A DNA stretch of 64,000 nucleotides from an uncultured Chloroflexia bacterium (GCA_963764785.1 CAVXTU010000001.1:1045754-1109753), one strand, 5' to 3'. Shown: positions 12,219-35,250, numbered from the stretch's first letter. Made by a program: numbers and translations. The notes: a model not told the origin generated them from the letters alone.

Positions 12219-13425
12219 CTAGGCCTTGCAGGCCGGCGCGAGCTTGAGCTTGGTGGGGATATGCGCGGCGATCCCGATATAGCTGTCGGCGGCGTTCGCC
12301 CCTCGCTTGGCCCATCCATCGACGCGTGCGATGTCGTTGTGATCGCCCTGCAGCGTGATGTAGTAGGCCGGATCCCTGAGCCTCTGCCCTGCCACGTTCA
12401 ACTGCTTGCAGTCGGTCGCCGATGTGACGAACACGACGAACGACCCAGGCCCGGCGTCGTGGTCGCACCCTTCGCCGATCCAGATAGCCCGGACCGAAGC
12501 CACTGAAGCGCTCCTGGCCACGCCTACCGTCCGCGCAACGCCCGGAACCAGAGGGAACGTTGCGTGCGCTCATCTCCGACTCGAACGCGCCGTGTGCGTC
12601 GCTGGCTTCCATGAGGTAATAGAACACAGCTGCCACAGCCGTCGTGTCTGGCGTGCATCGCACCGCGGCCACCGTGCCGGTCGGCACCGGTCGCCGCCAC
12701 GGCGAACAATGATTGGCGATCCGGGCCGGGATCCCCTTGAGCAGGACTTTCTCCGCCTGGCTGAACGACCCGGACGGTGGCTTCGGCTTCGGCGTGGCCC
12801 TGGACGCTCGCTGGGCGGCCGCGAGTTGATCCTTCAGGGTCTTGCTGTCAGCTTCGAGGGCCTTGATACGATCGCGCAGCTTGGTGATATTCGAGTTGTC
12901 GATGCGTTCGTTCGCCAGATCGAGCTCCGTCTGCAATGCCTGCAGCCGGTCTTGCAACTCGGAGAACTGGGTCGCTGTCAGCAGGACATCGGGGATCTCG
13001 AAGAGGAGTTGCGGTTCGCCGGATCCATCGGTCAGTCCCAGCACGCCGTCTTCGACCGTCCAGCCAGCGACCTCAGGCAACACCGCCAGGTAGGCGTCCT
13101 CGACGTCCTGGATAGCGTGTTCGCAGATGCCTGGGGCGCGCGTCAGCTCATCGGGAAAGGACAACGCGGTGCCATCGATGGCGTAGCTGCCGCTGAAAGT
13201 GTTGCATCCACCATTTCCCGACACCATTCCGGAGTCCAGACGGAGCGTGGCCTGTACGCCGAACGGCACTGTCGCCAGCTCCTCTGAGTCAGGCGCGAGG
13301 TATCGCGACAACGTCCAGTCGGCTCCCTCCGGAGTCAAGATGACATCCTGTGCGGTCACCGGGATGGATGATGTGACCGCCAGGATGACTGCGGCAACGG
13401 CCCCGAGAAGTCGGCTACGAATCAT
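12219..13425 (-). CDS. Exported META (HslJ-like) + coiled-coil + 6-Cys domain protein, copy 1; frameshift near 12485
   Basis: Signal peptide (VTA-QD); META motif SGNGGCNTFSGSY..C...EDAYL; heptad region; the Cys-rich C-terminus continues in the 12219..12521 frame. Confidence 0.75.
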
Positions 13426-13500
13426 GGAGTCCAGCCCTTTCTGCCGAGTGCGTTCCGAGCCGACTGTAGCGGGACATGGCCCTCAGCCGTCTCCGTCTGA

Positions 13501-14673
13501 TCATGTCGGGCAGCGCGGCGAAACCGGTGCATCCGGCCGCTCGATCTCCTGGGTCAGGCGAGATCGTCCCAGCCGCGGCTCCGCCCAGCGCGCCAGGGCG
13601 CGGATGTCGTCGTCATTGCCAAGGACGGCGACGTAGATGGCGGGGATGCGCACCCTGCGATCACCGACCTCGAGCTGGTTGCAGCCCGCTGCCGCCTCGA
13701 CGACCCGAAGGTTGGCGCGGCCATCAGCATCCACATAGCAACCGCTTGCGCCTGGGCCGGGCGTGTCATAGGCCAGTGCCACGGTGCCATTGCGACACTG
13801 TGCTTCACCGATCATTGACGCCGTACTGCTTCATGCGCCGCTCGAACACGCTGGTCGCAACAGCGCCGGGCATGAGGTAGTACGCCATGTCGCGTACGAC
13901 GGCCGCAGCGGGCTTGCACTGGACGGCGGCGATCGTTCCAGAGGGATTCTGGCTTCGCCGTGGCGCGCAGGTCCCCTTGATCGGACCCGGTATGCCTTCC
14001 AGCAGCATCCGTTCCGCTCGTTGAAGCCGCCACTCGACGCTCCCGAGCCGCTCGAGCGGAGCTCCTGGACCTGGCGTTGGAGTGAGGCCACCGTGCTCTC
14101 GAGCTCACTGATCCGGTCGCGCAGCGTGCCGATGCGGATATTGCGGAGGCGGTCCTCCAGCTGGTCGATGTGGTCCTGGAGGGCCTCGAAACGGGCCTCC
14201 ATCCCCGCGATGTCACTGGCGGTCAGACTGCTGACGGCTTGCTCGAATACCAGGCTCGTGACTCCTGCCGCATCGTCGAGCTGCAGAACACCATCGGCAG
14301 GGGTTGCCCACGTTGCTGTTGCGGGAAGGATGCTCATGTAGCCTTGTTCGACGACGTCGGCATCGCCGACGCAGGCCATCTCCGTCGCCGCGATGGGTTC
14401 GTCGAAACTGAGGCCTCCGGCAGCCAGCGTGTATGTGCCGACAAAGGTGTTGCAGCCGGTGGACCCGCTGGCGGTGCCAGCCTCCAGCAGCAGGGTGGCA
14501 TCGATCGTCCAGGGTACAGACACCGGTCCGCCGCCCGAGTCGTAGCTCGCCAGATGCCATTCGATACCTTCGATGCTCGCGGGGTCAGCCTGCGCCGCTG
14601 CGTTCGTCGGGAGTGCGATGATCGTCAGCGCGGCCAGGATCGATCGCGCACAGCTGCTGCGAAGCATTGGCAT
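13501..14673 (-). CDS. Exported META + coiled-coil + 6-Cys domain protein, copy 2; frameshifts near 14012 and 13812
   Basis: Signal peptide (AAA-QA); SGSTGCNTFVGTY..TEMAC. Joining ORFs 13831..14673, 13805..14008 and 13501..13815 gives a full-length paralog of copy 1. Confidence 0.75.
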
Positions 14674-14735
14674 CTCCTCGTGCGTGTCTCGATGCTACTC
14701 GGCGGTACCAAGTATCGACGTGGCAGGATGCGGCC

Positions 14736-15201
14736 ATGGGCAGCCAGTTCTTCCGTGCCAACGTGGGTATCGTGGTTACACGCACGGACGGCTGCGTGCT
14801 GGTCTTCGAGCGTCTCGATCGGTCAGGACAATGGCAGTTACCGCAGGGCGGTCTCGATGTCGGAGAGGAACCGCTCGACGCCGCGCTTCGTGAGCTCCGG
14901 GAGGAGACCGGCATCAGCCCTGGACACGTCCAGCTGGTGGCCGAGCACCCCGGTTGGCTGGCCTACGAGCTGCCGCCGTGAGCATCGCCGCAGGAAGACC
15001 GGTCGTGGCCAGGTGCAGAAGTGGTTCCTGTTTCGGTTCCTGGGCGAGGACGCTGATATCGAACTCGAGCCGCTCCGCGCGGAGCGCCAGGAGTTCGTCG
15101 CCTACCGCTGGATCGACCTGGCGGATCTGGTGGAGTCGGTCTGGGAGATCCGTCGACCCATCTATCGCGCCTTGGTCGAGGCGTGGGCGGACCTACTCTG
15201 A
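14736..15201 (+). CDS. rppH: RNA pyrophosphohydrolase (Nudix), frameshift near 14975
   Basis: FRANVGIVV, WQLPQGGLD.GE...AALRELREETG, WLAYELP, then GQVQKWFLFRF and EF..YRW in the next frame. Confidence 0.8.
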
Positions 15202-16320
15202 CGTGTCCTCGGTGCGGGGCAGGACATAGGATCGCTCGGGCAGCAGCTCCCAGCTGATCCTGTCGCCCGGCGCGTGGAGACCACGCGACATCCACTCGCC
15301 ATCGACCGCGATGATGTTGCCGTAGTCTTCGCCCAGGCCGAGCTCGTACTCCACGTACGCTCCCAGAAACGTGCTTCGCTGCACGGTGGCTGCCAGGTCG
15401 CCGGTCCCGACGCTGATCGATTCGGGACGGACCACGACCGTCGCTGCTTCGCCGGTCCGATTGCCGGTTCCTGCCGGGATGGTCATGGCGACGCCCATGA
15501 CCGAGATATCGCAGCTGTCGGCGGCGATCGACAGCACCTCACCGTCGAGGAAGTTGGCACGCCCGATGAAGTCAGCCACGAAACGGGTGTGGGGCCGGCG
15601 ATAGATCTCATCGGGTGGCCCGGCCTGCTCGATCTTGCCTGCGTTCATGACGACCACGATGTCCGAAAGGGCCATGGCCTCGGACTGGTCGTGCGTGACG
15701 TAGATCGAGGTGGTGCCCAGCTGTTGCTGGATGCGACGGATCTCCGAGCGCAGAGAGACGCGAAGCTTGGCGTCGAGATTGGAGAGCGGCTCATCGAACA
15801 GCAGCACCCGCGGTTCGATGGCCATGGCGCGTGCCAGGGCGACGCGTTGCTGCTGACCGCCCGAAAGCTCGGAGATCTTGCGCTGGCCAAGTCCATGCAG
15901 GTTGACCAGGTCGAGTGCCTGTTCGATGGTCGCTTCGAGCTCCTCGCCTTTCTTGCCCTGGAGCTGCACCCCGAAAGCGACGTTGTCATGCACGGTGAGG
16001 TGGGGGAAGAGCGCATACGACTGGAACACCATGCCCATGCCGCGCTTGTCCGGAGTGAGGCGGACCAGGTCCTTGCCATCGAGCAGGATGCGTCCACGCG
16101 TAGGCGACTCGAAGCCGGCGATCATGCGCAGGGTGGTCGTCTTGCCACATCCGGATGGACCCAGCAGCGTCACGAAGCTGCCGCCCGCCAGCTCGATACT
16201 GATGTCATCGACCGCGCGCACGTCGACACCCTCAGGCGACTTGAAGTGCTTGCTCAAACGCTCCAGCACCAGTGTCGCAGGCGTACTGCTGCGATCGACA
16301 CCCTGTCGGCTCAGCTCCAT
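15193..16320 (-). CDS. ABC ATPase (FbpC/AfuC/PotA type)
   Basis: GPSGCGKTT, LSGGQQQRVALAR, LLFDEPLSNLD, YVTHDQ; TOBE-like tail. Confidence 0.95.
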   Translation of the reverse strand: MELSRQGVDRSSTPATLVLERLSKHFKSPEGVDVRAVDDISIELAGGSFVTLLGPSGCGKTTTLRMIAGFESPTRGRILLDGKDLVRLTPDKRGMGMVFQSYALFPHLTVHDNVAFGVQLQGKKGEELEATIEQALDLVNLHGLGQRKISELSGGQQQRVALARAMAIEPRVLLFDEPLSNLDAKLRVSLRSEIRRIQQQLGTTSIYVTHDQSEAMALSDIVVVMNAGKIEQAGPPDEIYRRPHTRFVADFIGRANFLDGEVLSIAADSCDISVMGVAMTIPAGTGNRTGEAATVVVRPESISVGTGDLAATVQRSTFLGAYVEYELGLGEDYGNIIAVDGEWMSRGLHAPGDRISWELLPERSYVLPRTEDTSE

Positions 16321-18113
16321 GACGAGTTCCCGCTCCCCGATGATTGCTCGGCATCCGTCCTTGATCCCACCAGGAGCGTGAGGATGCCGATGGCGATGAG
16401 TACGATGGCGATGAGTACGACGCAGTAGGCGTAGGCGTTGCCATACCGCGCCGCGTCTACCTCATTGAGGATCTGAGCGGTCATGATGCGGACCTCGGGC
16501 GTGGTCAGGAAGATGACGGCGCTGATGGCCGTCATGGCTCGGGCGAACGAGTAGATCAGGCCGGCCAGGAAAGCCGGTCGGATGAGCGGCAGCGTGATCT
16601 TCCGGAAGGTGTGGGCCTGGTTAGCCCCGAGTGAAGTAGCGGCCTCCTCGATGGCGGGGTCGATCTGTTGCAGCGACGAGGTACCCGAACGAAGCCCACC
16701 GGGTGCCGACCGCAGGATGAAGACCATGACGATGGCGATGGCGCCACCGAGGATGGCCGCCCCGCCGGTCAGCTTCGGGAAGACCGTCAAGCCCAGGATC
16801 TCCGTGGGCGTGTTGAAGGCCAGCAGATAGCCGATGCCGAAGATCGTTCCGGGGATGGCCACTCCGAGCATCAGGCCGAAGTCGAGCGTGCCGCGGCCCC
16901 AGAAGCGACGCCGGATCACCAGGAACGCGACGACGACACCGAGCACGCCGGCGATGGGCGTGGCGATCGACGACAAGGTCACCGTATCTGTCACGGCATC
17001 GAAGCCGTATCCGAAGAAGACGGCCTCGAAGTGGTCGAGTGTGAAGGTATGGTTGACGCCCAGTAGCTGTGTGAACGACCCCACCACGATGGTCCCGTAC
17101 AGCAGGATGATCAGGCCAACCACGGCCAGCACGATACCCAGCAGCAGCCATCGGGCTGGCCGGCCCTCGATCTCGGCGTGCCGGCCGCTGGGTTTGCCCG
17201 AGACCGAGACGATGGACGCCTTGTTCGCGTAGTAGCGGTGGACGAAGTAGACCACCAGTGCCGGGACGAGCAGCATCACGGCCAGCACCGATCCTGCGGT
17301 CAGGTTGTACTCACCCACGATGGCGATGTACATACGGCTCGCCAGGACCGTGTAGTTCCCCCCCAGCACGAGCGGATTGCCCAGGTCGGCGAGCGCCTCC
17401 ACGAACAACAGCAGGAAAGCAGAGGCGATGCCCGGCGCCAGCAGCGGCAGGGTGACCTTGCGGAATGTGCGCCACTTCGACGCGCCCAGGTTGGACGCGG
17501 CCTCCTCGAGCGACGGGTCCAGCGCGCGCATCATGCCCATCAACATGATGTAGGCGATGGGAAAGAACGTCAGCGCCATCACCGCAGTCAGGCCGGCCGG
17601 AGGCAGGAACCCGATGTCGGGCCAGCGGTAGATATCGAGACGCACGCCCAACAGGTCTCGGGTGATCATGCCGCTTCGGCCGAACAGGCTGATGGCGGCC
17701 ACGGCCAGCGCGAAGGGCGGGCTCACGATGGGCAGGAGCGCCATCACGTGGATCAGGGTCTTGACTGGTCGCGGGGCCGGGACGCGAACCTGGACGTAGG
17801 CGAAGACGAACGCCACGAGGGTGCCCAGGGTCGCCACGCAGATACCCAGCGTGATCGTGTTGAGGAGGATCTGGTTCTGGGCCGTGGTGATATAGCGCTC
17901 GAAGATCGGTATGGCCTCGGCCGAGATCGCCTCGCCGATGACCTTGCTGACCGGCCAGACGATGGCGACCAGGACGAAGCCAGCGGAGATGAGGATGGCC
18001 AGGATGACCATCGGATCCACGGCGCGCCAGCGCGGCCGAATTGGATCCTTTGGTATCTCATCGTGGCGAGGCAGCGCGGCGTCCTGGACTGCCTGACGAT
18101 CAGAAACGGTCAC
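16311..18113 (-). CDS. ABC permease with duplicated TM domain (FbpB/AfuB type)
   Basis: Two EAA loops (LEEAASNLGA and IEEAATSLGA). Confidence 0.93.
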   Translation of the reverse strand: MTVSDRQAVQDAALPRHDEIPKDPIRPRWRAVDPMVILAILISAGFVLVAIVWPVSKVIGEAISAEAIPIFERYITTAQNQILLNTITLGICVATLGTLVAFVFAYVQVRVPAPRPVKTLIHVMALLPIVSPPFALAVAAISLFGRSGMITRDLLGVRLDIYRWPDIGFLPPAGLTAVMALTFFPIAYIMLMGMMRALDPSLEEAASNLGASKWRTFRKVTLPLLAPGIASAFLLLFVEALADLGNPLVLGGNYTVLASRMYIAIVGEYNLTAGSVLAVMLLVPALVVYFVHRYYANKASIVSVSGKPSGRHAEIEGRPARWLLLGIVLAVVGLIILLYGTIVVGSFTQLLGVNHTFTLDHFEAVFFGYGFDAVTDTVTLSSIATPIAGVLGVVVAFLVIRRRFWGRGTLDFGLMLGVAIPGTIFGIGYLLAFNTPTEILGLTVFPKLTGGAAILGGAIAIVMVFILRSAPGGLRSGTSSLQQIDPAIEEAATSLGANQAHTFRKITLPLIRPAFLAGLIYSFARAMTAISAVIFLTTPEVRIMTAQILNEVDAARYGNAYAYCVVLIAIVLIAIGILTLLVGSRTDAEQSSGSGNSSWS

Positions 18114-18123
18114 GGAAGCGGAA

Positions 18124-18150
18124 ACGAGGCCGGCAGGCCGCCGACCTCGT
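18124..18150 (-). other. Intergenic stem-loop between SBP and permease genes (mRNA stabiliser or attenuator)
   Basis: ACGAGGCCGGC/GCCGACCTCGT near-perfect inverted repeat. Confidence 0.45.
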
Positions 18151-18211
18151 CATCTGGGTGCTTCAGGGGCAACGACATGACGCCGCCGCCGCTGAACGTC
18201 ACGTTCGCTCG

Positions 18212-19243
18212 CTACTCGGCGGGTTCGGCGGCGACCTCGTCCTCGAAACGCTGCGTGAGCTCGGTACGGGCGGCACCAGCGGCGTCGAAGTCGTAGTCGA
18301 TCAGCGGGACCTCGTCAAGGCTGACCGAAAGGTCGCTGACCGCGGCGTCAGGGTTGGTCGGCAGTTGGAACGAGCCGACCGCAGGGCCGATCTCCTGGGT
18401 GTCTGCCTGCAGGGACCAGTCGATCCACTTCTTGGCGTTGTCCGGGTTCTGAGCTCCGTTGACCAGCGCTACCGCACCGATCTCATACCCCGTGCCCTCG
18501 CTCGGGAAGGTCACGACGAGATCCGTGAAGCCCTCTTCGTAATTCTTGATGCAGTCGTGGCTGAAGATGATGGCAGTCGCGATCTCACCGCGTCCGGCCA
18601 TGCCGCCCGGCGCAGAGCCGGACTTGGTGTACTGCAGGATGTTGGGATGCAGGGCCTTCATATAGGCGATGGCCTGGTCCTCGCCGCCCAGTCGGATGAC
18701 CTGCGTGTAGAGAGCTGTGTACGCCGTGCCGGAACTGGCAGGGTGCGCGACCGCCACATTGCCCTGGAGCGTGGGATCCAGCAGGGCTTCCCATGAGTCG
18801 GGGGCGGCGATGCCCAGGCGCTCCAGCTCAGACTGATTGGAGCAGAATCCGAGCGCGCCCACGTAGACACCGGTCCAGGTGCCGTCGGCGGCCTTCTTGT
18901 CATCCGGGATGGCGGCGGCGTTGGGCGAGATGTAGGGCTCGATCAGCCCCTCTGCGGCGGCGGCGATCTGACCATCCGCCGGGCCGCCCCACCAGACGTC
19001 GAACTCGGGCGCCTCGGCGCCGGCACGCAAGCGCGCCAGTGCCTCGCCTGACGACATCCGCACATAGCTGGTGTCGATGCCCGTCTGGGCCTGGAACTCA
19101 TCCACCATCTTGACGCACCAGTCTTCCTGGGGCGTGCAGAGAACGACGAGGCTGCCCTCGTCCTGAGCGGCGGCTGTGGCACCGAGCCCCGCTACCAGCA
19201 TGCTCGACAGCAGGATCGAGCCGAATCCTCGACGTCGTGTCAT
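18212..19243 (-). CDS. ABC substrate-binding protein (FbpA/AfuA family)
   Basis: Signal peptide ending AAA-QD; RMSSGE, DVWWGGP, HPASSGTAY and EGTGYEIG motifs. Confidence 0.9.
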   Translation of the reverse strand: MTRRRGFGSILLSSMLVAGLGATAAAQDEGSLVVLCTPQEDWCVKMVDEFQAQTGIDTSYVRMSSGEALARLRAGAEAPEFDVWWGGPADGQIAAAAEGLIEPYISPNAAAIPDDKKAADGTWTGVYVGALGFCSNQSELERLGIAAPDSWEALLDPTLQGNVAVAHPASSGTAYTALYTQVIRLGGEDQAIAYMKALHPNILQYTKSGSAPGGMAGRGEIATAIIFSHDCIKNYEEGFTDLVVTFPSEGTGYEIGAVALVNGAQNPDNAKKWIDWSLQADTQEIGPAVGSFQLPTNPDAAVSDLSVSLDEVPLIDYDFDAAGAARTELTQRFEDEVAAEPAE

Positions 19244-19479
19244 ACGACCAGTCCCTCCTCCAGAGAATTGGGTCGGCCATCCCTCGCCGAACCCTTGTGG
19301 AGGGGCACGGTAGCACACGGCCAAGGCCTGAAATCGGCTGAACGTGGCGCCATCAGCCCGGCCGCTCGGCGCACGATACGGACCATGCGGTGGGCGCGTG
19401 GCCAGACTGGCGTGGCTGACCTCCCGTTCGGTGAGCGGCAGGCCCGCGGACTGGGTCCCGCCGCTCGGTGGTACGACGG

Positions 19480-20758
19480 TCAGCCGGCCGATGCGGCCAG
19501 GGCCTGCTCCAGATCTTCGATGATGTCATCGATATGCTCGATCCCGATGCACAGGCGGATGGTATCCGGCGTGACGTTGGCCGAAGCCAGCTCAGCTTCG
19601 TTGAGCTGTCGATGGGTGGTGGACGCCGGATGCGCGGCCAGCGAGCGGACGTCGCCGATGTTGACGAGTCGCTTGAACAGCTTGAGCGAGTCGTAGAACT
19701 TGACGCCCGGTTCGTATCCTCCCTTGACGCCGAAGCTCAGCAGGCCCGATGGCTTGCCGCCGGTGTACTTCTGCGCGAGCTCGTAGTAGGGCGAGTCCGG
19801 CAGACCGGCATATGCGACCCACGCGACCTGATCGTGGTTCTTGAGGAACTCGGCCACGGTCTGGGCATTGCTGACGTGGCGCTCCATGCGCAGCGGCAGC
19901 GTCTCGATCCCCTGGATGATGAGGAAGGCGTTCAGCGGGCTGATGGCAGAACCGGTATTGCGCAGCGGCACCGTTCGCGCGCGGGCGATGAACGCGGCCG
20001 GACCGAAGGTCTCCGTGTAGACGACGCCGTGGTACGCGGGCTCGGGCTCGGTCAGCATGGGGTACTTGTCCGCGTGATCGGCCCAGGCGAACTTGCCGCT
20101 ATCGATGATCATGCCGCCGAGCGAGTTGCCGTGACCACCGATGTACTTGGTCATCGAGTGGACCACGATGTCCACGCCGTAGTCGATGGAGCGTGTCAGC
20201 ACCGGAGTCGACACCGTCGCATCGGCGATAACGGGGACACCGTGGCGGTGGGCCATCTCGGTGATGGCCTCGATATCAGCCACGTTTCCTGCGGGATTAC
20301 CGATGGTCTCGATGAAGACAGCGGCGGTCTTGTCGTCGATGAGGCGCTCGAGGGCGTCCGGGCTGCCGTCCTCGAGCGAATCGGACCTCGATGCCCAGGC
20401 CAGGGAGCATGTGCGCGAACAAGGTGTAGGTTCCGCCGTAGAGGAGCGGCACCGAGACGATGTTGGAGCCGGCCTTGGCGATGGTCAGGATGGCGTAGTT
20501 GATGGCCGCCGACCCTGCGGACACGGCCAACCCCGCGATGCCCCCCTCCAGCTCGGCGACGCGCTTCTCCAGTACGTCAGCGGTGGGGTTCATGATGCGG
20601 GTATAGATATTGCCCGCCACCTCGAGGTTGAAGAGGTCTGCGCCATGCTTGGCGTCGTCGAACTCGTAGGCGACCGTCTGATAGATGGGAACGGCCACCG
20701 ACTTGGTGGTTGGTTCGGTCTCGTATCCGGCGTGGATGGCGATGGTCTCGGCTCTCAT
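19480..20758 (-). CDS. metY: O-acetyl/succinylhomoserine sulfhydrylase, frameshift near 20370-20300
   Basis: [30 protein letters not shown]; [11 protein letters not shown] (PLP Lys); [16 protein letters not shown]. Confidence 0.9.
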
Positions 20759-21894
20759 TGGTGGCGTGTCTCCTGCGCTGTGCGTGGTGGCTTCGACGAG
20801 GGCGTTGCCGGCCCCGGGTGGGCATCTCGGCCCATGCCAAGCGGATCCTCCGGATCGATACCGGGCATGAACGGCTCGTGGCGATCGAGGCCGGTGAGCT
20901 GGTAGACCAGCCCCAGCCAGTTGTTGAAGAGTGCTCGGCCCGTATCTCCCCAAGTGTTGTCCAGGTGGTCATCGAACGATGACTCCGGGAACTCCGGATG
21001 GACCCCACCGTGGGCTCGTGCGGCGAGAGCATCGCGGAGATATGACTGTGCCAGCTCATCGGAGGCTGAGTCCAGGTACCGCACAGGATACGGTGGTGGG
21101 GCATCCAGCTCCCCGTCAAGGAACCGACCGACTTCCCGCTTGTATTCCTTGAGCAGGCTGTTGCGGTCGTACTCAGGGTGGCCCTGGAAGTAGATGATAC
21201 GGAAGCCATCCGGACTGGTCGCCAGGTGCACGCCGGCCTCGTCACTTTCAGCCAGCACTCGCAGTCCCGCCCCATCCCACTTGTGACGGGCGATGTCGTT
21301 CCAGCGTGAGTGCGGGGCGTCGAAGCGGGTGTTGACATCCTGGGTGAGCGGGTGCGAACGATCGCACACCCGATGACGATAGACGCCCCAGAGCTTCTGT
21401 TCGAATGGTTCGCGATCAAGCCCATAGAGGTGTTTGAGCAGGGCGTGGGTGGCCAGGCACGAGCACAGGATGCTGGTGACATGTCGCTCAGCCCAGGCCA
21501 CGACCTCGCCCAGCGGCTCCCAGAACGGCTCCAGATCCAGCGATGGATTGGTCACGTTGGCGCCGCTGATGATGAGTGCGTCCAGGCCGCGGGCCTTGAG
21601 CTCGTCGAAGTCGGCGTAGTACGTCTGGATGTGGCTACGTGCCTGGGCGCTGCGCGCCAGCCCCGGAACACTGAAGGGATACACGTAGAGCTGGGTGATG
21701 CGGTTGCATGCGCCAACCAGTCGCATGTACTGCTTCTCGGTCACCAGCAACGCCGCGTCCGGCATCATGTTGAGCAGCCCGATATGCAGCTCGCGGATAT
21801 CCTGGGTGCGCGCCCGCTCGACACTCAGCACATCCTCGCCCTCGGAGCGCAGGCGCTCGAAGGTGGGCAGCGCGTTGTGGGCTACCAGGGGCAT
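20755..21894 (-). CDS. metA: Homoserine O-acyltransferase, MetA family
   Basis: [25 protein letters not shown], catalytic CSCLA, PHSR and FQGHPEYD; ATGA overlap with metY. Confidence 0.9.
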
Positions 21895-21979
21895 GCAGGT
21901 CTCTCCATCTCCATTCCGACGCGTGATGCGGAGGTTGATGGTACCTGCGGGCGCGAGCCTGATGGCTGACGCCGTCTGC

Positions 21980-22468: not shown

Positions 22469-22584
22469 CGGTACCATCCTGCCGATAGGACTATCGCCGG
22501 TAAAGAGGCTGACGCTCCTTGGGGTGCGCCCGGTCAACGAAATCCCGCCGCAGCCGGCTGTTCAGGCCGTTCGTTCAGCTCGTC

Positions 22585-23868: not shown

Positions 23869-23955
23869 GGCGCTCCTAAACGTCGGCCCCGCACACCGCG
23901 CGTGCGCCGATCAGGTCGGCAGCATCGCACATCGAGTGCGGAGTCGAATTGGTGA

Positions 23956-26868: not shown

Positions 26869-27064
26869 CCCATGAGCCTACATGAGCCGTGGTGCGGACT
26901 TTGAGATGCCACTGCAACGCGTCCGGGCAGGATGGTGCGCGCGCTGGTAGCCACTGGCACGCGACCATCGATGGGTGACAGACCGCGGCCTTGTCGCCGC
27001 ACTGGATGGCGCGAGCCCACGGCCGCCGTACGACTCGATGCTGCTCACCACGAGGAGGATCTCG

Positions 27065-27360
27065 ATGCCCACCTGGACGGACAAGGACGAGCGCCAGTAC
27101 GAGCATGTCAAGGACAGCGCCATGGATCGCGGCAGGTCCGAGGACCGCGCGGAGGAGATCGCCGCGCGCACGGTCAACAAGCAGCGCCGCGAGGAAGGGC
27201 GCACACCGAGCCGTCGGACATCGGGTACCGGCAATCCCAACACCAGGCTGGAGGGCCGGACCCGCGATGAGCTCTACAACCGCGCCCGGGAACTGAAGAT
27301 CCTGGCCGGAGCAAGATGGACAAGTCGGAACTCATCGAGGCTATCCGGGCTCGAAGCTAG
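27065..27360 (+). CDS. Small protein with C-terminal Rho-N-like helical domain, frameshift near 27302
   Basis: GAGGAGG RBS; WTDKDERQYEHVK..AEEIAARTVNK..RTRDELYNRARELKI, then GRSKMDKSELIEAI in the next frame. Confidence 0.8.
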
Positions 27361-27374
27361 GGCTCCGTCGGGGA

Positions 27375-28760
27375 TCATGCGTCGGGCAGGACCTTGCCCG
27401 GGTTGAGGATCCCGCCAGGGTCCAGTGCAGCCTTGATCGAGCGCATGGCCGCCAGGCCGCGGGGACCGACCTGGTCCTCGAGATAGGCACGCTTGCTGAC
27501 GCCAGTGCCGTGTTCGCCAGCGATGGAACCGCCGAGCTCCAGGACCTCCGCGAAGAGATTCGCGCGCACCGCGTTGATGCGTTCTTCCGCGCGCGGATCA
27601 TCGCGCTCGGTCACGAACGTGGGGTGGAAGTTTCCGTCGCCGGCATGACCGAATACGCCGATCTCCATGTGATGCCGTGCGCTGATGCGCTCGATCAGGC
27701 TGATCAGCTCGGCAACGCGGCTACGGGGCACGCTGATGTCCTCGGTGCGGGCCGCGCCCGCCGCCGCCATCGACCAATGCGCTCGACGTCGAGCTTCGCG
27801 TAGCGCATCGGCCTGCGCCACATCAGCGGCACGTGAAGTCGAGGTGGAGCCCGCCTTCATGCAGGCGGCCGCGGCGACATCCAGCTCTGCCTCTGCCAGT
27901 TCACCACCGGCATCTGACTCGATCATCAGCATCGCGCCGGCACTCCGATCGAGCCCCAGCGACAGCGCCGCCTCGACTGCACGGATCACGTAGCTGTCGA
28001 GCATCTCGAGGGTGACCGGCGTGATCCCGGCCCTGGTGATCCGGCTCACGGCCGCGCCAGCGTGCCGGACGCTCGGGAAGAACGCGAGCATCGTCAACTT
28101 GGGCGCCGGCGCCGGTCGAAGCCGGAGCGTGGCCTCGGTGATGATTCCCAACGTTCCTTCGGATCCAACGAAGAGGTGCGTCAGGTCGTAGCCCATGACG
28201 TCCTTCACGTTGCGTCCACCGGTGCGGATGATCTCTCCATCGGCGAGGACGACCTCCAGGCCCAGGACATAGTCACCAGTCACGCCGTATTTGACGCATC
28301 GCAGGCCGCCAGCATTCTCGGCAAGGTTTCCCCCGATGACCGATGTCTCGTGCGAGGCGGGATCGGGTGGATAGGCCAGGCCAAGTGCTTCGACGGCCCG
28401 CTCAAGGTCGGCTGTCACCACGCCCGGCTGGGTCACCATGAGCAGGTTGTCGACGTCGACCTCGATGATCCGGTCCATCTTCGTCATCACCACCACCAGG
28501 CAGCCGTCCACGGCGTTGGCACCGCCGGACAGCCCGCTTCCGCCGCCGCGCGGCACCAGCGGTACACGATGCTGGCTCGCGAACCTGACGACCTCCTGAA
28601 CCTCGTGGGTAGACCGGGGAAAGACCACCCCCGCGGGCCGGCCCGGGTCCAGGAATTCCGTCTCGTCCCGCCGATACGACTCCATCTCCGTCGGCTCGGT
28701 CAGCAGGTCGGCTCCCGGAAGCGCCACGGTGAGGTCGCCAAGGAGCGCCCTTGAGATCAT
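27375..28760 (-). CDS. FAD-linked oxidase, GlcD/D-lactate dehydrogenase family
   Basis: PRGGGSGLSGG, YPPDPAS, GSEGTLG, GHAGDGNFH, GEHGTG. Confidence 0.93.
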   Translation of the reverse strand: MISRALLGDLTVALPGADLLTEPTEMESYRRDETEFLDPGRPAGVVFPRSTHEVQEVVRFASQHRVPLVPRGGGSGLSGGANAVDGCLVVVMTKMDRIIEVDVDNLLMVTQPGVVTADLERAVEALGLAYPPDPASHETSVIGGNLAENAGGLRCVKYGVTGDYVLGLEVVLADGEIIRTGGRNVKDVMGYDLTHLFVGSEGTLGIITEATLRLRPAPAPKLTMLAFFPSVRHAGAAVSRITRAGITPVTLEMLDSYVIRAVEAALSLGLDRSAGAMLMIESDAGGELAEAELDVAAAACMKAGSTSTSRAADVAQADALREARRRAHWSMAAAGAARTEDISVPRSRVAELISLIERISARHHMEIGVFGHAGDGNFHPTFVTERDDPRAEERINAVRANLFAEVLELGGSIAGEHGTGVSKRAYLEDQVGPRGLAAMRSIKAALDPGGILNPGKVLPDA

Positions 28761-28769
28761 CGTGCTCGA

Positions 28770-28797
28770 CGCCTCACGCCTCACGCCTCACGCCTCA
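28770..28797. repeat. Heptamer tandem repeat (CGCCTCA)x4
   Basis: Four exact copies at the mscS/glcD junction. Confidence 0.9.
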
Positions 28798-29660
28798 GGG
28801 TGTTCGTGGAGTACCGGCGGGCTGCCGCGGCGGTTGAGGGAGATGCCTTCGGCGGAGAGCGCCTCATCAAGCCGCAGGCGAAGCTCGGTTGCGACACGCC
28901 AGCGCTCCGATGCGATGACCTTGCCCCGCATCACCGCGACATTGCCCCACTCGTCGGCCTCATCCACGAACTTGAGTGCCGGTGCCTCGGTGATCGCCGC
29001 GGCAAAGGCGGGGTCGCCGGCCAGGCTTTCGCCGACTCGCTGCATGACCTCCATGACGCTGCGCAGATCGCCCTCACGCACGCCTCGCACCCGTACCTCG
29101 GCCGCCGCGTAGATGCGAGTCCGATTGGCCACCAGGCGCAGCTCACCGTTGGAGATGGAGTACACCGTCCCGTCGGCGCCCCGGACCACCGTTCGGCGCA
29201 GGCCGACCTCCTCCACCGTGCCCTTCCAGGGCGGGCTCCCCAGCTCGATGTTGTCGCCCTTGAAGAACTGTGCCTCGACGATGATGAAGACACCCATGAG
29301 GTAATCCAAGACGATGGCTTGGCCCGCCAGTGCGATGGCCGCGAAGAAGAGGCCCACCGCCGTGAGGACACCCCACGTCCCCGTTACGCCGACCAGCAAG
29401 ACGACACCCAGCGCGATGATGGTGATGCGGATCAGGGTGGTGGCCAGCGACTCGATGGTGGAGGCGCGCTTGACCAGCTCGGCATCCTCCACGCCGCTGC
29501 CACTGACATCACCTTCGCTCGCGCGCAGGGTGCGGCGGACGAGCTTGGGGACGATGCGACCCGAGTAGGCGTAGAGCACGACAAGGAGCCCGCCAAGGAA
29601 CAGGATCAGCAGGATGTTCTGCGAGAACCACTGCTGCAGCTGGCTGGTGTCCACGTCCAT
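28788..29660 (-). CDS. Small-conductance mechanosensitive channel (MscS family)
   Basis: Three TMs; QFFKGDNI..GTVEEVGLRRT...DG....ISNG. Confidence 0.9.
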   Translation of the reverse strand: MDVDTSQLQQWFSQNILLILFLGGLLVVLYAYSGRIVPKLVRRTLRASEGDVSGSGVEDAELVKRASTIESLATTLIRITIIALGVVLLVGVTGTWGVLTAVGLFFAAIALAGQAIVLDYLMGVFIIVEAQFFKGDNIELGSPPWKGTVEEVGLRRTVVRGADGTVYSISNGELRLVANRTRIYAAAEVRVRGVREGDLRSVMEVMQRVGESLAGDPAFAAAITEAPALKFVDEADEWGNVAVMRGKVIASERWRVATELRLRLDEALSAEGISLNRRGSPPVLHEHPEA

Positions 29661-29717
29661 CCGCCTACCCTAGTCCGCGCTGGAAGGTCGTGTCCGGCAG
29701 GCCGGTGAGGCCGATCG

Positions 29718-30611
29718 CTATCGGTACGGTGGTGCCAGTCTCACCCCGGCCGCGGTGCAGTCCTCGGCCAACGAAGCCTGGGCCTCCATCGTTGGCTCCA
29801 CCTTGGTCGGGAAGCAGATGAGCCGGTCGAGTCCGATGTCCTGGTACTCGCCGATGAGATCGACCCGACCTGGGCCACCGTCAAGGACGTCCTCGTCACG
29901 CACATAGAGGGAGAAGCGGATCGACCCCGGGTCTCGTCCGGCAGCCTCGCAACGATTCCGGACATCAGCCATCCGCTCAGCCACTTCGGGGGGGCTGAGA
30001 TAGACGAAGTTGAGCTCATCGGCGAAGCGCACGGCAAGTCCCGCCGTGCGGACCTTGCCATTGCCGCCCACGATGATGGGGATGTGTTCCTGGATCCCGC
30101 GCGGCTCATTGATGGCATCGCGGACATGGACTCGTTCCCCTTCGAACGTCGCATGACCAGGGGCCAGCATCCGGGTGATGACCTCGAGGTGCTCCTCGAA
30201 CACGCTGATCCGCTCGCCGATCGGCGGGAAACCGTATCCGTAGGCGAGCCATTCATCCTTCTTCCAGCCCGCGCCGATGCCAAGCTCGAAGCGGCCGCCG
30301 CTGATGACGTCGATGGTGGACGCCAGCTTCGCGGTCAGTGCCGGGTTGCGGAAGGCGGTGCAGATGACCATGTGGCCGAGGCGTGCGTGCTTCGTGATCA
30401 CAGCCAGCGCGGACAGCACCGAGAACGATTCGAGCGTCATCTCGTCGGTAGGTTCAGGGACGGTGTGGAAGTGGTCGAACGCCCACAGCGACTCGAAACC
30501 CAGGTCCTCAGCCTGTCTGGCCAGTTCGACCGTGCGGGTCCACGCATCGGCTGCAGCCCAGCCGTCGTACTCACCCTTCCAGCCCTGCGGCGCCATCAGT
30601 CCGACCTTCAT
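29718..30611 (-). CDS. LLM-class F420-dependent oxidoreductase
   Basis: PQGW, GFESLWAFDHFH, RNPALTAK, ISGGRFELGIGAGW..EW.AYG. Confidence 0.9.
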   Translation of the reverse strand: MKVGLMAPQGWKGEYDGWAAADAWTRTVELARQAEDLGFESLWAFDHFHTVPEPTDEMTLESFSVLSALAVITKHARLGHMVICTAFRNPALTAKLASTIDVISGGRFELGIGAGWKKDEWLAYGYGFPPIGERISVFEEHLEVITRMLAPGHATFEGERVHVRDAINEPRGIQEHIPIIVGGNGKVRTAGLAVRFADELNFVYLSPPEVAERMADVRNRCEAAGRDPGSIRFSLYVRDEDVLDGGPGRVDLIGEYQDIGLDRLICFPTKVEPTMEAQASLAEDCTAAGVRLAPPYR

Positions 30612-30645
30612 CGTCCCTCCTTGTTCGTGTCCGGGCTCTCTCAGG

Positions 30646-32316
30646 TCATGAGGCGGGTTCGATCGCCTGGGCCTCGGGAGGCGCGTCGCCGGCCTCCGCC
30701 GTGGCGGGCTGCCAGTGCCGTAGCGGCAGATCCCTTAGGGCGACCGTGACCACCACCAACGCGACGATCGTGGCTCCGAGTCCGAACCAGAACGTGTCGG
30801 CGATGGCCGCAGAGAAGGCGGCGTACACGCCACTCACGATCTGGTCCACGAAACCCTGGAGTTGGGGCACCTGTGACAGTTGCTGGGCCAGCGTCGTATC
30901 GCCGACCTGGCCAAGGCTGCCGCTATCCCCAGCCAGGCTGGCGATCACGCCGATCTGCTCAGCCGGCACTCCGGCGGTAGCGAGTGACGGCTGCAGGCGA
31001 GAGGCGAACGAGTCTGCGAACAGCGTTCCCACGATGGCCAGACCCACTGATCCGCCGACCTGACGGAAGAATGTCAGGTTGCCGGTTGCCACGCCCAGTC
31101 GAGTGAACGGCACCGATGACTGGATGACGATGGTGAATACTGACAGGGTGGGTCCGATGCCGATGCCGGCCACGAACATCCACAGCCACAGGAACGGCAT
31201 CTCCGTTCCGGCGTTGAGGTTGGTGAACAGCAGGATGCCTACCGTCATCAGCCCGAGCGCGCCGGTCAGGATCCACTTGTACGTGCCGGTGCGGCTGACC
31301 AGGATGCCGGCACCGACGGAGCCTAGGATGACGCCAGCCATCAGCGGCAGGATCTGGAGGCCCGATTCGGTGGGGCTGACATTCTGGACGAATTGCAGCC
31401 AGCGCGGCAGGAAGATGATGGCGCCGAAGAAGCCGATGGCAGCCAGGAATGTGGCCAGGATCGACACTGAGTAGTTGCGGTTCCGGAAGAGATCGAGCGG
31501 GATGATCGGCTCTGCCGCACGCGATTCGATGAAGAGGAAGACCGGTGTCAGGACCGCGGCGATGAGCAGGAAGCCGCCGACCTCGAGGTCCGCCCAATCC
31601 CCGGTGGCCTTGTTGGTCAGGCCCAGCAGCAGGAAGAAGACACCGACCGCGAACACGACAGCTCCGGGCAGGTCGAGCTTGCGTGTGCGATCCCGATCTT
31701 TGATGGGTGGCAGGAGGCGATACACGATGAAGATCGACACCAGGCCCAGCGGGATGTTCACGTAGAAGATCCAGTGCCAGCTGATGTTGTCCGTGATCCA
31801 GCCACCGAGCAGTGGGCCAAGCACCGACGCCAGTCCGAAGACCGCGCCGAAGAGACCTTGATAGCGGCCTCGTTCACGGGGATCGAAGAGGTCACCGATG
31901 ATTGCCAGCGAGATGGGGAAGATGGCGCCGGCGCCGACACCCTGGATGCCGCGGAAGACGATCAGGCTCTCCATCGACCACGACAGGCCGCTGAGCGCCG
32001 AGCCGATGAGGAAGATGCTCACGCCGATCAGCAGCATCGGGCGCCGGCCGTAGATATCCGAGAGCTTGCCGTAGAAGACGCCGGTGATGGTGGCTGCCAG
32101 CAGGTAGCTGGTGATGGCCCAGGTGTAGAGCTCATTGGTGCCCTGGAGGTCACCGACGATGCGAGGCAGGGCCACCCCGACGATGGTCTGGTCAAGGGCG
32201 GACAGGAAGATGACCAGCAAGACGGCGCCGAGGATCTGCATCTTTCGGCGTTGCGGGAGTCCCAGCGCTGGGTCGAGCTCCTGGATGTCGGCCCTGGGTC
32301 GTGGATCAGTGGTCAT
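30646..32316 (-). CDS. DHA2 (14-TM) MFS drug efflux transporter
   Basis: LDQTIV..ALP, GKLSDIYGRR, WHWIFYVNIPLG, EPIIPLDLF. Confidence 0.95.
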   Translation of the reverse strand: MTTDPRPRADIQELDPALGLPQRRKMQILGAVLLVIFLSALDQTIVGVALPRIVGDLQGTNELYTWAITSYLLAATITGVFYGKLSDIYGRRPMLLIGVSIFLIGSALSGLSWSMESLIVFRGIQGVGAGAIFPISLAIIGDLFDPRERGRYQGLFGAVFGLASVLGPLLGGWITDNISWHWIFYVNIPLGLVSIFIVYRLLPPIKDRDRTRKLDLPGAVVFAVGVFFLLLGLTNKATGDWADLEVGGFLLIAAVLTPVFLFIESRAAEPIIPLDLFRNRNYSVSILATFLAAIGFFGAIIFLPRWLQFVQNVSPTESGLQILPLMAGVILGSVGAGILVSRTGTYKWILTGALGLMTVGILLFTNLNAGTEMPFLWLWMFVAGIGIGPTLSVFTIVIQSSVPFTRLGVATGNLTFFRQVGGSVGLAIVGTLFADSFASRLQPSLATAGVPAEQIGVIASLAGDSGSLGQVGDTTLAQQLSQVPQLQGFVDQIVSGVYAAFSAAIADTFWFGLGATIVALVVVTVALRDLPLRHWQPATAEAGDAPPEAQAIEPAS

Positions 32317-32320
32317 GGTC

Positions 32321-32860
32321 TCAGTGTTCGTCCTCGTCTCGCGATAGCGCGGTGGTTGCGTCGTGTTTCTCTGAGCGATGGCGGCGTTTGATCTTGTCGG
32401 CCTCGCGACCCATGAGCTGCATGGCCTGCAGGCAGACCTCCTGCTCCGACGGTCCCAGCGCTACCAGGATCTGCCGAAGTCCTTCCCGCCGAGCGGATTC
32501 CAGCTGTTCGACATAGGACTGGCCCTTGGCCGTGCTGTGCACGACCACGACCCGGCGGTCGTTGTCATCACGCTCTCGCTCCACGAGGCCGCCATCGACC
32601 ATTCGGTCGATGATGCCGGTCAGGTTCGGGAGCGCCACATCCGCCAGCGTCGCGAGCTGGCTCATGGTCTGTGGTCCGTTGACGTCGAGCAGGATGAGCA
32701 GATGCAGGTTCAGCTTGCTGACCGACCGGTCCTGCCACACCTTGGCGATGGCATGTCGCTGGGCCATGAAGAGGGGCTGGGCCGCATCGATGATCCGCTC
32801 GACGAGCTCGTCCGTCCCGACACGTTCAGGGGACGGGGAATTGGTTGGAGTCACCAACAT
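32321..32860 (-). CDS. MarR-family transcriptional regulator
   Basis: TMSQLA..LTGIIDRMVDGGLVERERDDNDRRVV..TAKG; lies upstream of the DHA2 pump. Confidence 0.9.
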   Translation of the reverse strand: MLVTPTNSPSPERVGTDELVERIIDAAQPLFMAQRHAIAKVWQDRSVSKLNLHLLILLDVNGPQTMSQLATLADVALPNLTGIIDRMVDGGLVERERDDNDRRVVVVHSTAKGQSYVEQLESARREGLRQILVALGPSEQEVCLQAMQLMGREADKIKRRHRSEKHDATTALSRDEDEH

Positions 32861-32861
32861 C

Positions 32862-32889
32862 ATTATGCATAGCACAACATATTCGTCAA
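32862..32889 (-). promoter_or_regulatory. Sigma-70-type promoter of marR-MFS with overlapping palindrome
   Basis: TTGACG-16 nt-CATAAT just upstream of the start; TATGCATA palindrome overlaps the -10; locally AT-rich. Confidence 0.55.
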
Positions 32890-32908
32890 CCGTGACGATG
32901 TCGCCAGA

Positions 32909-33571
32909 TCAACCTGCCGGCGACTCCAGTGCATCGACCGCTGATTCCCACTCGGGCGGCAACGATACGCCGGGACGCGACATGAGTCGCAGGAACAGGT
33001 CCGACGCGGTCCCATACACGCTGGCAACGGATTCGCCCTCACCGTAGCGCCAGCTCCGGTCAAGGTCGGTCGCCACCATCTCGATGCTCGGAACGTGGCC
33101 CAGCCGTGCGAGGTAGAAGTCGCTGAACTCATCAAGTCCATCGCTGGCCACGAGTGGAGGCAAGGCATCGGCTGTCTCCTGGGCACTCTGGGCATCCCAG
33201 CGATGGACGCCGGTCTCGATGACCATGCGTCGCTCCCAGAAGCGGAGGCGCTTGTCCTGGCCGAACGTCCATACCGAGGCGTCCGGATCGGCTTCGTCGA
33301 GTGCATCCAATAGCTGCGCCAGGGCGATCTCTGCCTGGCTGATCAGGTCTTCGCCGGGCGTCAGCTCGGGGAGCGCGATGCGCTCCTGCGGCAGTGTCCT
33401 GCAGATCTCTGTGGTCCGGGCGTGGATCCTGGCCACGTGACGAAGAAGGTCGGCCAGCGTCCACGTGGGGTACTGGGGCACGCGCTTGTCGGGAGCGGCG
33501 CGCGCAACTTCGATGATGCGCCGTCCGTCCGTCTCGATGATCTCGGGTCGCGTCGATTGGGTCATGGCCAT
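32909..33571 (-). CDS. Maleylpyruvate isomerase family mycothiol-dependent enzyme (MDMPI/DinB-like)
   Basis: VPQYPTWTLADLLRHV, FWERRMVIETGVHRWDA, DGLDE, GTASDLFL. Confidence 0.85.
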   Translation of the reverse strand: MAMTQSTRPEIIETDGRRIIEVARAAPDKRVPQYPTWTLADLLRHVARIHARTTEICRTLPQERIALPELTPGEDLISQAEIALAQLLDALDEADPDASVWTFGQDKRLRFWERRMVIETGVHRWDAQSAQETADALPPLVASDGLDEFSDFYLARLGHVPSIEMVATDLDRSWRYGEGESVASVYGTASDLFLRLMSRPGVSLPPEWESAVDALESPAG

Positions 33572-33781
33572 GGATCCCGAGTCTACGTCGCCGGCACCGT
33601 CGCAAGGGTTCTGCAAGGTCCTGCTCGGCGGCGACGGCGCGACTGCGATCGAGGGCTCGATAGGCTGAAAGCGTGCGTCAGTTCGATCGCGCCGCGTGGA
33701 GTGCCGAGCAGCCCGCTGTTCCGCAGCGAGGAGCCGCCGTGCCGCTCCACCCCGACCGGAGCCGTCACACAAGGAAAACGC

Positions 33782-34528
33782 ATGACCTCGCACGCCTCGA
33801 GAAGACTGGTCCACAGCGGACTGGCCGCAGCAACGCTGGCGCTGTTCGCCACACCGGCAAGCGCGGTGAACATCCCCGAAGGTGGCGCCGTGACGCCAGA
33901 CAGTGTCTTCGTCATCCATTTTCAGGTCCAGGAGGGTTGCGAGGGTGCACCCACGGACGGCCTGGAGGTGACCATCCCGGCTTCCGTGAGCAACCCGCAA
34001 CCTGAACAGGTGCCCGGTTGGGATGTCGAGGTCACCACGCAAGGGGCCGATGCCGCGGGTGCCCAGGCTGACGCGGAGGCCACGGCGGAGAGCGAAGACG
34101 GCAGCGCCGATGCAGGGTTGACGGTCGTCAGCTGGACCGGCGGTTCCGTGCAGGCTGGCGCCTTCCAGGAATTCGGATTGCGGGCACGATTCCCCGATGA
34201 CCCCGGTGCGACCATCGCCTTCGCGGTCCTGCAGCGTTGTGGACTGGTGGAGCGAGCGTTCACCGCAGGCGACGACCAGGACCCCGCTCCGACGGTCACG
34301 CTATCGGAGCGCTTTGGACCTCGCGACATCAACGCGCTGAGTGACTCGGTCACTCAGTTGCAGTCTGACATCGAGGAGCTTTCGGCCCAGATCGGCGGCG
34401 TGGATATGCCCAACCTGCGGTCGCGCGTCAAGGACAACGAAGATGCCGTAGATGACCTGGAACCCCGTCTGACCGAACTCCAGGAGCAGGTCCAGGCGCT
34501 GCAGGATCCTCAGCCATCGGAGTCGTGA
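33782..34528 (+). CDS. YcnI (DUF1775)-like exported protein with C-terminal coiled coil
   Basis: Signal peptide; EGCEGAPT..LEVTIP..P..VPGW, VSWTGG, FQEF, F..LQRC, PAP; AAGGA RBS. Confidence 0.8.
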   Translation: MTSHASRRLVHSGLAAATLALFATPASAVNIPEGGAVTPDSVFVIHFQVQEGCEGAPTDGLEVTIPASVSNPQPEQVPGWDVEVTTQGADAAGAQADAEATAESEDGSADAGLTVVSWTGGSVQAGAFQEFGLRARFPDDPGATIAFAVLQRCGLVERAFTAGDDQDPAPTVTLSERFGPRDINALSDSVTQLQSDIEELSAQIGGVDMPNLRSRVKDNEDAVDDLEPRLTELQEQVQALQDPQPSES

Positions 34529-35018: not shown

Positions 35019-35250
35019 GCGGTGGGCGCAGCTGTGTCAGCACCCTGGAGGCGGCCGCCGTGGCAGTGATCAAGGCCAGGCTGGTGGCTCGTCTCATGAC
35101 CTCTCCCAAGTGCTCCGCGATCACCGTCTTGACAGGTGGCAAGACTACGCCCGAACCCTGAGGACCGGGCCCCGACCGTGTCTGGTGGACTAGGCACATC
35201 GTCAGCGGGCGCCTAGGATTGACAGCCACCATGTGGAGAGACTTGGAGCC

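Follow-up and report, generated by a model that had tools for sequence, protein, structure and literature searches.

A 64,000-nucleotide stretch of DNA from an uncultured Chloroflexia bacterium (GCA_963764785.1 CAVXTU010000001.1:1045754-1109753), here called the window, encodes three proteins that carry the same coiled-coil module: a YcnI-like protein with a DUF1775 head and two META domain proteins, META1 and META2. A sequence-only reading had proposed that the module is a lineage-specific tag through which different heads plug into one surface assembly. Here, we show that the coils of the YcnI-like and META families are homologous, share a core motif and a register break in the same column, and are found in a single genus. 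We consider it about 60% probable that the module is a lineage-restricted coiled-coil stalk that self-associates, most probably as a trimer, in both exported families. It is an ordinary and familiar kind of protein part, a coiled-coil stalk rather than the undescribed system first suspected; no Pfam or other named family was found for the module.

One homologous module with a conserved core and break

The three 39-residue strings on which the sequence-only reading was based are letter-perfect in the window at 12853-12969 (-), 14098-14214 (-) and 34325-34441 (+). Compared pairwise by BLASTP, the YcnI tail and the META stalks are 25–28% identical over 60 residues (E 2e-4 to 3e-4, single comparison), a likeness that by itself is weak for coiled coils, for which family-level tests are decisive. 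A hidden Markov model (HMM) made from the three segments, as the sequence-only reading had suggested, recovered only its own three sequences from the genome (next E 0.51), whereas HMMs of the two families recognize each other. The YcnI-tail HMM comprised 116 YcnI-type tails, with the window's own excluded, and the META-stalk HMM 22 stalks; the search space was the 44,738 six-frame open reading frames (ORFs) of at least 50 residues in the host genome (3.84 Mb in 8 contigs). With the YcnI-tail HMM the window's YcnI-like protein scored 8.6e-24, META2 6.6e-9, a paralog on contig C8 7e-9 and META1 1.2e-4, with the next match at 0.22; with the META-stalk HMM, META1 scored 3.2e-21, META2 1.2e-16 and the YcnI-like protein 2.7e-5, with the next match at 0.04. 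No other coiled coil of the genome comes within three orders of magnitude of the cross-family scores, and the genome-wide module matches are confined to two META and two YcnI-type genes, with no headless form among the ORFs searched. In relatives, the META-stalk HMM matches 9 of 10 YcnI loci and the YcnI-tail HMM 18 of 19 META-type ORFs, along almost the full length of the model.

The similarity also exceeds the shuffled heptad controls that had been proposed for it: none of 2,000 shuffles preserving the hydrophobic/polar pattern reached the real score in any of three tests, nor did any of 2,000 full shuffles. Aligning the two families with hhalign gives a probability of 97.7% and an E value of 1.5e-12 over 56 columns without gaps; one of 150 class-preserving column shuffles scored as high as the real alignment (an outlier, 135 against 57.8). 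Divergent members make the kinship plainer, with YcnI tails reading '...V-N-V-T-N-L-R-N-R-V-V-D-L-E' and META stalks '...L-N-V-P-R-L-R-E-R-I-K-A-L-E'. The coils of the YcnI-like and META families are thus one homologous module, and their likeness is statistically sound. Among named coiled-coil families, Pfam DUF7310 (PF23991, a coiled-coil region, function not known) scores highest with META2 and the YcnI tail and is also precomputed on a few homologs; META2 (21.4 bits) and the YcnI-like protein (17.6 bits) are not members, given that both fall below its cut-off of 40.

We aligned 28 module segments (10 YcnI-type and 18 META-type), all from DNA references. In the core, L-R-x-R-[IV]-x-x-x-E, residues R34, R36 and E41 are invariant and L33 is conserved in at least 90%, which upholds the LRxR(I/V) motif of the sequence-only reading; the 'LQ' pair that it also listed reduces to a conserved Leu column. 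In the YcnI-like tail, R213 and R215 are invariant and L212, V216 and E220 at least 90% conserved across 33 sequences. Hydrophobic core columns are spaced by 3 or 4 throughout, with a single spacing of 2 between columns 37 and 39 of the module profile (A2), just before the motif. This register break, two residues short of a heptad, lies in the same column in both families, as the claim of an identically spaced break implied. An optional insert of exactly seven columns occupies the same site of helix A in both (2 of 10 YcnI rows, 9 of 18 META rows). In the AlphaFold2 (AF2) monomer of the YcnI-like protein, helices 180-205 and 209-241 are separated by a break at 206-208 (G-V-D), whereas the META homolog P0121 is modelled as one continuous 56-residue helix (151-206). 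The module spans about 58–65 residues and would form a parallel, in-register coiled-coil stalk, in which a helix A of four or five heptads would lead through the conserved register break into a helix B that begins with L-R-x-R-[IV]-x-x-x-E.

Two putatively exported families that differ in head and architecture

Coordinates of the genes, domains and modules are collected in Table 1. The YcnI-like gene starts with the ATG at 33782, with AAGGAAAA upstream, and its product matches Pfam DUF1775 (PF07987) with 72.2 bits (cut-off 25); almost all of its homologs (n = 125) are full length. Modelled with a predicted local distance difference test (pLDDT) score of 86–96 over most of its length, the head superposes on B. 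subtilis YcnI with Z 16.6 and a root-mean-square deviation of 1.9 A over 125 residues (8um6_A; model range 28-177) and on 7me6_A with Z 16.5, and profile-to-PDB sequence matches point to 3esm (9.8e-8) and 7me6 (1.1e-6).

Table 1 Features of the three module-bearing genes in the window
Feature	Position	Strand	Basis
YcnI-like gene, 248 residues: signal peptide, His-less DUF1775 head, coiled-coil tail	33782..34528	+	ATG, Pfam, homologs
DUF1775 (YcnI-fold) head, residues about 29-177	33866..34312	+	AF2 model vs 8um6_A
Coiled-coil module of YcnI-like protein, residues 180-242	34319..34507	+	HMM envelope, AF2 helices, three-copy interface residues
Core motif L-R-S-R-V-K-D-N-E of YcnI-like protein, residues 212-220	34415..34441	+	Conservation in 33 sequences
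META1 gene: signal peptide, META domain, stalk, Cys-rich C-terminal domain	12219..13425	-	tblastn of P0121; frame switch 12484/12485
META domain of META1, residues 51-143	12997..13275	-	Pfam PF03724, 56.5 bits, cut-off 24
Coiled-coil module of META1	12805..12981	-	HMM envelope L013:1822-1998 moved to window coordinates
Core L-R-D-R-I-K-A-L-E of META1	12853-12879	-	
Cys-rich C-terminal domain of META1, no family match	12222..12768	-	Homologs, AF2 fold of P0121
META2 gene, tandem paralog of META1	13501..14673	-	Three-frame translations; frame switches about 14017/14018 and 13809-13811
META domain of META2, residues 32-144	14242..14580	-	Pfam PF03724, 65.2 bits, cut-off 24
Coiled-coil module of META2	14050..14226	-	HMM envelope L013:3067-3243
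Core L-R-D-R-I-S-E-L-E of META2	14098-14124	-	

B. subtilis YcnI (PDB 7MEK/7ME6/8UM6) is described as binding Cu(II) via its N-terminal His27, Glu50 and Trp137 and as ending in a C-terminal transmembrane (TM) helix; His27, the N-terminal residue of the mature protein, forms its monohistidine brace (PMC8424229). The window's protein has the signal peptide, the fold and the Pfam domain in common with it, but lacks the copper-ligand His and carries a coiled coil in place of the TM helix. Its mature N-terminus reads A-V-N-I-P-E-G-G, with Ala28 aligned to BsYcnI His27 in the structure alignment, and no hydrophobic stretch follows the head (maximum KD19 0.96). The same holds for its relatives: none of 116 YcnI-type family members has a His directly before the conserved Val (7 have one a residue earlier), and all 120 lack an LPxTG motif and a genuine C-terminal TM helix, the two members flagged for a C-terminal TM helix being gene calls extended at the N-terminus. 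An N-terminal hydrophobic stretch is present in 117 of the 120 (signal peptides judged by eye), and the module proteins appear to be exported.

Contig C8 (32494-33376, -) carries another YcnI-type gene whose tail is the same coiled coil; its head is 55% identical, and its frame switches inside the coil, within 'V-D-P-E-N / L-R-S-R-V'. A canonical His-type YcnI on contig C5 (123127-124200, +) has 'G-H-V-E-S' behind its signal peptide but lacks a coil, and a CopC-like ORF comes next (by eye), so the genome keeps a standard copper-type YcnI alongside His-less, coil-bearing ones. This C5 gene also changes frame; read by eye across the apparent frameshift, it has neither anchor nor coil, and the canonical His-type genes L011 and L012 of related genomes likewise end in neither coil nor TM helix (by eye). 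That the coil replaces the usual membrane anchor is true against B. subtilis YcnI; these His-type proteins, as read by eye, show no anchor. Beside the window's YcnI-like gene no CopC or CopD was seen when its neighbours were judged by eye, and no neighbour of YcnI-type genes is kept in more than 9 of 24 loci, in a comparison blurred by antisense ORFs in GC-rich DNA (the window is about 66% G+C). At 34557-36720, next to the gene, lie an MgtC-like ORF (-) and an exported ORF of 495 residues (+) (by eye); the N-terminal part of the latter is cupredoxin-like (C-x-x-H-x-x-M, by eye), and neither ORF is conserved at the relatives' loci. In the species collection, 24 of 27 relatives' loci belong to metagenome-assembled genomes labelled Chloroflexia or Limnocylindrales, and the other 3 are distant DUF1775 genes without a coiled-coil tail. 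A literature search, supplements not covered, found no publication naming both 'DUF1775' and 'coiled-coil'.

META1 and META2 are neighbouring minus-strand genes whose products are 34% identical over 202 residues (E 1e-32). Because they are tandem paralogs, the likeness of their coils is simply part of a whole-gene duplication, and the three different heads of the sequence-only reading come down to two head types. In intact META homologs of about 400 residues, a signal peptide and the META domain precede one long helix, which a Pro/Ser-rich linker connects to a Cys-rich domain of about 180 residues. With a domain following the helix, the coil in this family is an internal stalk and not a terminal tag; the idea of a shared tag fits the YcnI/DUF1775-like tail only. 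Foldseek with the META homolog model finds 2la7 (E 3.2e-6) and 2kts (1.9e-4), and the N-terminal domains of META1 and META2 resemble HslJ and other META domain proteins (PF03724; PDB 2KTS, 2LA7), to which the window's proteins add the stalk and the Cys-rich domain. The Cys-rich domain is modelled confidently (residues 223-400 of P0121, pLDDT >90 over most; homologs P0121-P0138) and has no Pfam or NCBIfam family; the matches listed by Foldseek for the whole model were all to the META domain, with no PDB match for the Cys-rich domain, for which the nearest Atlas clusters are unnamed actinobacterial proteins (at most 0.91). Judged from titles and the beginnings of abstracts, the papers listed on META domain, HslJ and coiled-coil proteins do not deal with this architecture. 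In some META proteins (P0158, P0164, P0208, P0224; L056:360-851, -) the C-terminal domain is replaced by two to three repeats of helix B with a period of 21 residues, reading 'L-R-x-R-V/I-x-A-N-E-x-A-I-A-E-I'. Within the genus, META genes occur as tandem arrays of paralogs with the same stalk.

Both META genes change frame in the window, META1 once and META2 twice. With P0121 as tblastn query, residues 1-315 match in frame -2 to 12484 and residues 315-400 in frame -3 from 12485. For comparison we used contigs from three soil-metagenome runs of two studies (X1, X2 and X3), which are 95–99% alike. The X1 and X2 contigs lack one base at 12485, the META1 switch, and one base at 13809 or 13811 in META2, and the X2 and X3 contigs carry an additional G at 14017 or 14018. 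Every META1 and META2 frame switch thus coincides with a single-base difference; one more lies at 13490-13491, just past the META2 stop. The genes are open in relatives, and we take the frameshifts, those on C8 and C5 included, to be without biological meaning: they are probably errors in the assembly's consensus or, at the most, changes private to the strain. Elsewhere in the window, at 19480-20953 (-), adjacent ORFs of 267 and 218 residues resemble by eye the halves of one O-acetylhomoserine-sulfhydrylase-type enzyme, probably split by another assembly frameshift.

A very large, frame-switched ORF occupies 49510-53017 (-), with a zinc-ribbon-like N-terminus, a Cys-containing C-terminal domain and about 500 residues of P-T-P-E-P-T repeats at 50513-51988 (periods of 12, 24 and 108 bases), which explain the G+C spike (0.72) and GC skew (0.27) at 50–52 kb.

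Distribution of the module and its likeness to trimeric coils

Matches to the module, 1 to 6 per genome, were found in 29 of 49 genomes of the genus and in none of 300 other genomes across the phylum, 15 of the same family included (E <= 1e-6, at most 21 candidates scored per genome), which supports the lineage specificity first proposed. Across 24 genus genomes, both types occur together in 8 and neither in 11. Genomes with one type (META in G005, G008 and G014; YcnI in G002 and G360) are 59–86% complete and for that reason are weak evidence.

A scan of the module profile over 1.84 billion representatives produced 312 matches at E <= 0.001, of which 150 were listed. Sorted by Pfam head, 48 strong single-module matches comprise 14 META, 7 DUF1775, 1 DUF1214, 1 sub-threshold DUF7310 and 25 without a Pfam head; the last are, by eye, shortened calls of the two types or headless forms. 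The DUF1214 match is no further head type, being by eye a fused upstream gene, and small module-bearing frames in relatives (L054-L059) are fragments of the two known types. A word-indexed search with the same profile, covering longer proteins only, returned 59 matches, nearly all META or YcnI proteins or truncated gene calls. In headless forms from metagenomes, recognized by eye, the signal peptide is followed by nothing but the module (P0296 and, in its N-terminal part, P0149) or by the module and the Cys-rich domain (P0279); in P0267 and P0281, a YcnI-subtype module comes after a lipoprotein-like 'AAC' signal. In one gene call, a small headless-type ORF lies directly upstream of a META gene.

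We computed a quick tree of 158 modules out of 235 extracted, for which the YcnI group was randomly thinned to 40 of its 117 members and rows were labelled by simple patterns. One split separates all 40 YcnI-labelled rows from 73 of the 75 META-labelled rows (support 83, under the starred level); the DUF1775 protein P0273 is an exception, on the META side with a long branch. Since module subtypes track the head type, the tree is read as mainly one old domain recombination and not as a freely swapped tag: the module was probably recombined once between the families, inside one genus-level, Limnocylindria-like Chloroflexota clade.

A published trimerization motif has Arg(g)-h(a)-x-x-h(d)-Glu(e) in a g-a-d-e register and recurs in unrelated proteins (PMC3653964). 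In the module, core columns 42, 46 and 49 take positions d, a and d, which places Arg at 45 in g and Glu at 50 in e. The META cores R-I-K-A-L-E (META1) and R-I-S-E-L-E (META2) agree with the motif exactly, and 18 of 22 META-family and 33 of 120 YcnI-family proteins have the strict form R-[ILVM]-x-x-[LIV]-E (116 of the 120 carry the core). Position d is polar in most YcnI-type tails. Those without the strict form have Thr, Ser, Ala, Asn or Asp there, and the window's own, with Asn (R-V-K-D-N-E), is one of them. The module shares with the R-hxxhE trimers coronin-1, ccbeta and GCN4p-M3 (PMC3653964) the invariant Arg and Glu five apart at g and e, the hydrophobic a and d between them and, in the window's modelled tail, an inter-chain 215-220 contact. 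It differs from them in the Asn at d, in a second invariant Arg two residues upstream and in the conserved two-residue register break ahead of the motif, and its trimer is a prediction.

Three copies of YcnI-like residues 176-246 were modelled with a score of 0.80, against 0.00 for the best of 3 controls. The mark it reached is also reached by 20 of 30 proteins solved as same-chain pairs and 1 of 23 solved as single chains, counts that are only roughly valid here because our own alignment and three copies instead of two were used. Runs agree in at least 98% of contacts, with a partner pLDDT of at least 88. The closest contacts join equal residue numbers (212-212, 216-216 and 233-233), together with 215-220 between neighbouring chains, which points to a parallel, in-register bundle with the expected Arg–Glu pair. 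The three-copy model supports self-association and leaves the copy number undecided.

Among the profile matches are long repetitive proteins with repeats of the 'L-D-G-R-V-T-T-N-E-G-D-I' type. Four of 16 scanned contain YadA_stalk domains, most also with head or anchor domains, and are therefore trimeric autotransporter adhesins. In the stalks of such adhesins, Asn at d is a known feature (PMC13580157) and insertions in the heptad register are described (PMC4786415, PMC13580157). Their 'L-x-x-R-V-x-x-N-E-x-x-I' resembles helix B of the YcnI-like protein, N-L-R-S-R-V-K-D-N-E-D-A-V. The window's proteins carry a single unit and not a long fibre, and their export route and host lineage are different; the Pfam matches of the three (E <= 0.1) include no YadA_stalk, head or anchor domain. 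The resemblance may be no more than trimeric coiled coils share in general.

Alternative readings and what the stalk would mean

We infer the oligomeric state and the head functions along the following lines. Through the module, each protein would assemble with copies of itself, most probably into a trimer. Among YcnI-like proteins, the C-terminal tail would bundle the His-less DUF1775 heads; among META proteins, the module would serve as a rigid spacer, with the META domain on its N-terminal side and the Cys-rich domain on its C-terminal side. Several points weigh against this reading. Strict trimerization motifs are missing from 83 of 116 YcnI-type tails, and the make-up of the core, with beta-branched residues at a and Leu at d, is by the Harbury rules the pattern of dimers. 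Only the three-copy number was modelled, so that dimer and tetramer remain compatible, and the controls of that model were unrelated proteins and not coiled coils, which score high easily. The helix break at 206-208 in the YcnI-like monomer is compatible with a helical hairpin. The module profile is partly generic, many of its 312 matches being long repetitive coiled coils with scores summed from weak stretches. Finally, a trimer alone leaves unexplained how the anchorless tail holds the YcnI-like head at the cell.

Some of these points would suit a two-helix element of another geometry or role, such as a dimer, an antiparallel hairpin or a surface for binding a wall polymer or partner, with Arg-x-Arg...Glu serving for binding. 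The modelled YcnI-like helices, similar in length on either side of G-V-D, the dimer-like core, the many tails without the strict motif and the Gly and Asn that hardly vary near the break, more than a plain coiled coil would require, all favour it. We nevertheless regard it as unlikely, given that the META homolog is modelled as a single continuous helix, that the three-copy model stays in register across the break (pLDDT at least 88) and that the positions of the invariant Arg and Glu, g and e, are those of the published motif (PMC3653964). More improbable still is convergence, in which two unrelated coils would have reached the same trimerization-type motif and the rest would be heptad composition. 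Low pairwise identity, the recurrence of R-h-x-x-h-E in unrelated proteins (PMC3653964) and the generic matches of the profile speak for it, but it fits poorly with the 56 gapless hhalign columns, the identical break column and one-heptad insert site, the pattern-preserving shuffles, the restriction of both families to the same genus and the distance of all other coiled coils in the genome; we hold it to be very improbable.

The anchorless YcnI-type heads could instead be held in one cell-surface assembly by a docking code, in which YcnI-like and META-type proteins would join headless stalk proteins in mixed oligomers, for example with a coil-bearing lipoprotein as tether. Headless metagenome forms, including the lipoprotein-like P0267 and P0281, the tandem META arrays with a shared stalk and the co-occurrence of both types, or of neither, in most of the 24 genus genomes are consistent with this, although shared ancestry within a subclade would yield the same co-occurrence. 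Against it stand the absence of a headless form from the module HMM search of this genome, the genomes with a single type, the lack of a well-kept YcnI-type neighbour and the tree, on which module subtypes track head type as self-association predicts. Docking is accordingly quite unlikely, and its bolder version, a lineage-private assembly code in which mixed trimers with headless secreted or lipid-anchored stalks would combine anchorless heads at the envelope, is a shade less probable again. Of the oligomerization or docking tag in the sequence-only reading, oligomerization is made plausible by the motif and the three-copy model, and docking has found no positive evidence. The single surface assembly into which all heads would plug is not borne out: there are two Pfam head types, the tree follows the heads, no YcnI-type neighbour is kept in more than 9 of 24 loci, some genomes show one type, and the META coil is a spacer.

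For a self-associating stalk, the gain beyond annotation is modest, given that oligomerizing coiled-coil stalks are common on exported proteins. It provides a searchable module (profile A2) for two unstudied exported families of widespread uncultured soil Chloroflexota, and a clear case of a coiled-coil stalk transferred between families. It also singles out, within DUF1775, a subfamily from which YcnI's copper-binding His and its membrane anchor have both been lost, and for these proteins the label 'copper chaperone' is hence probably wrong.

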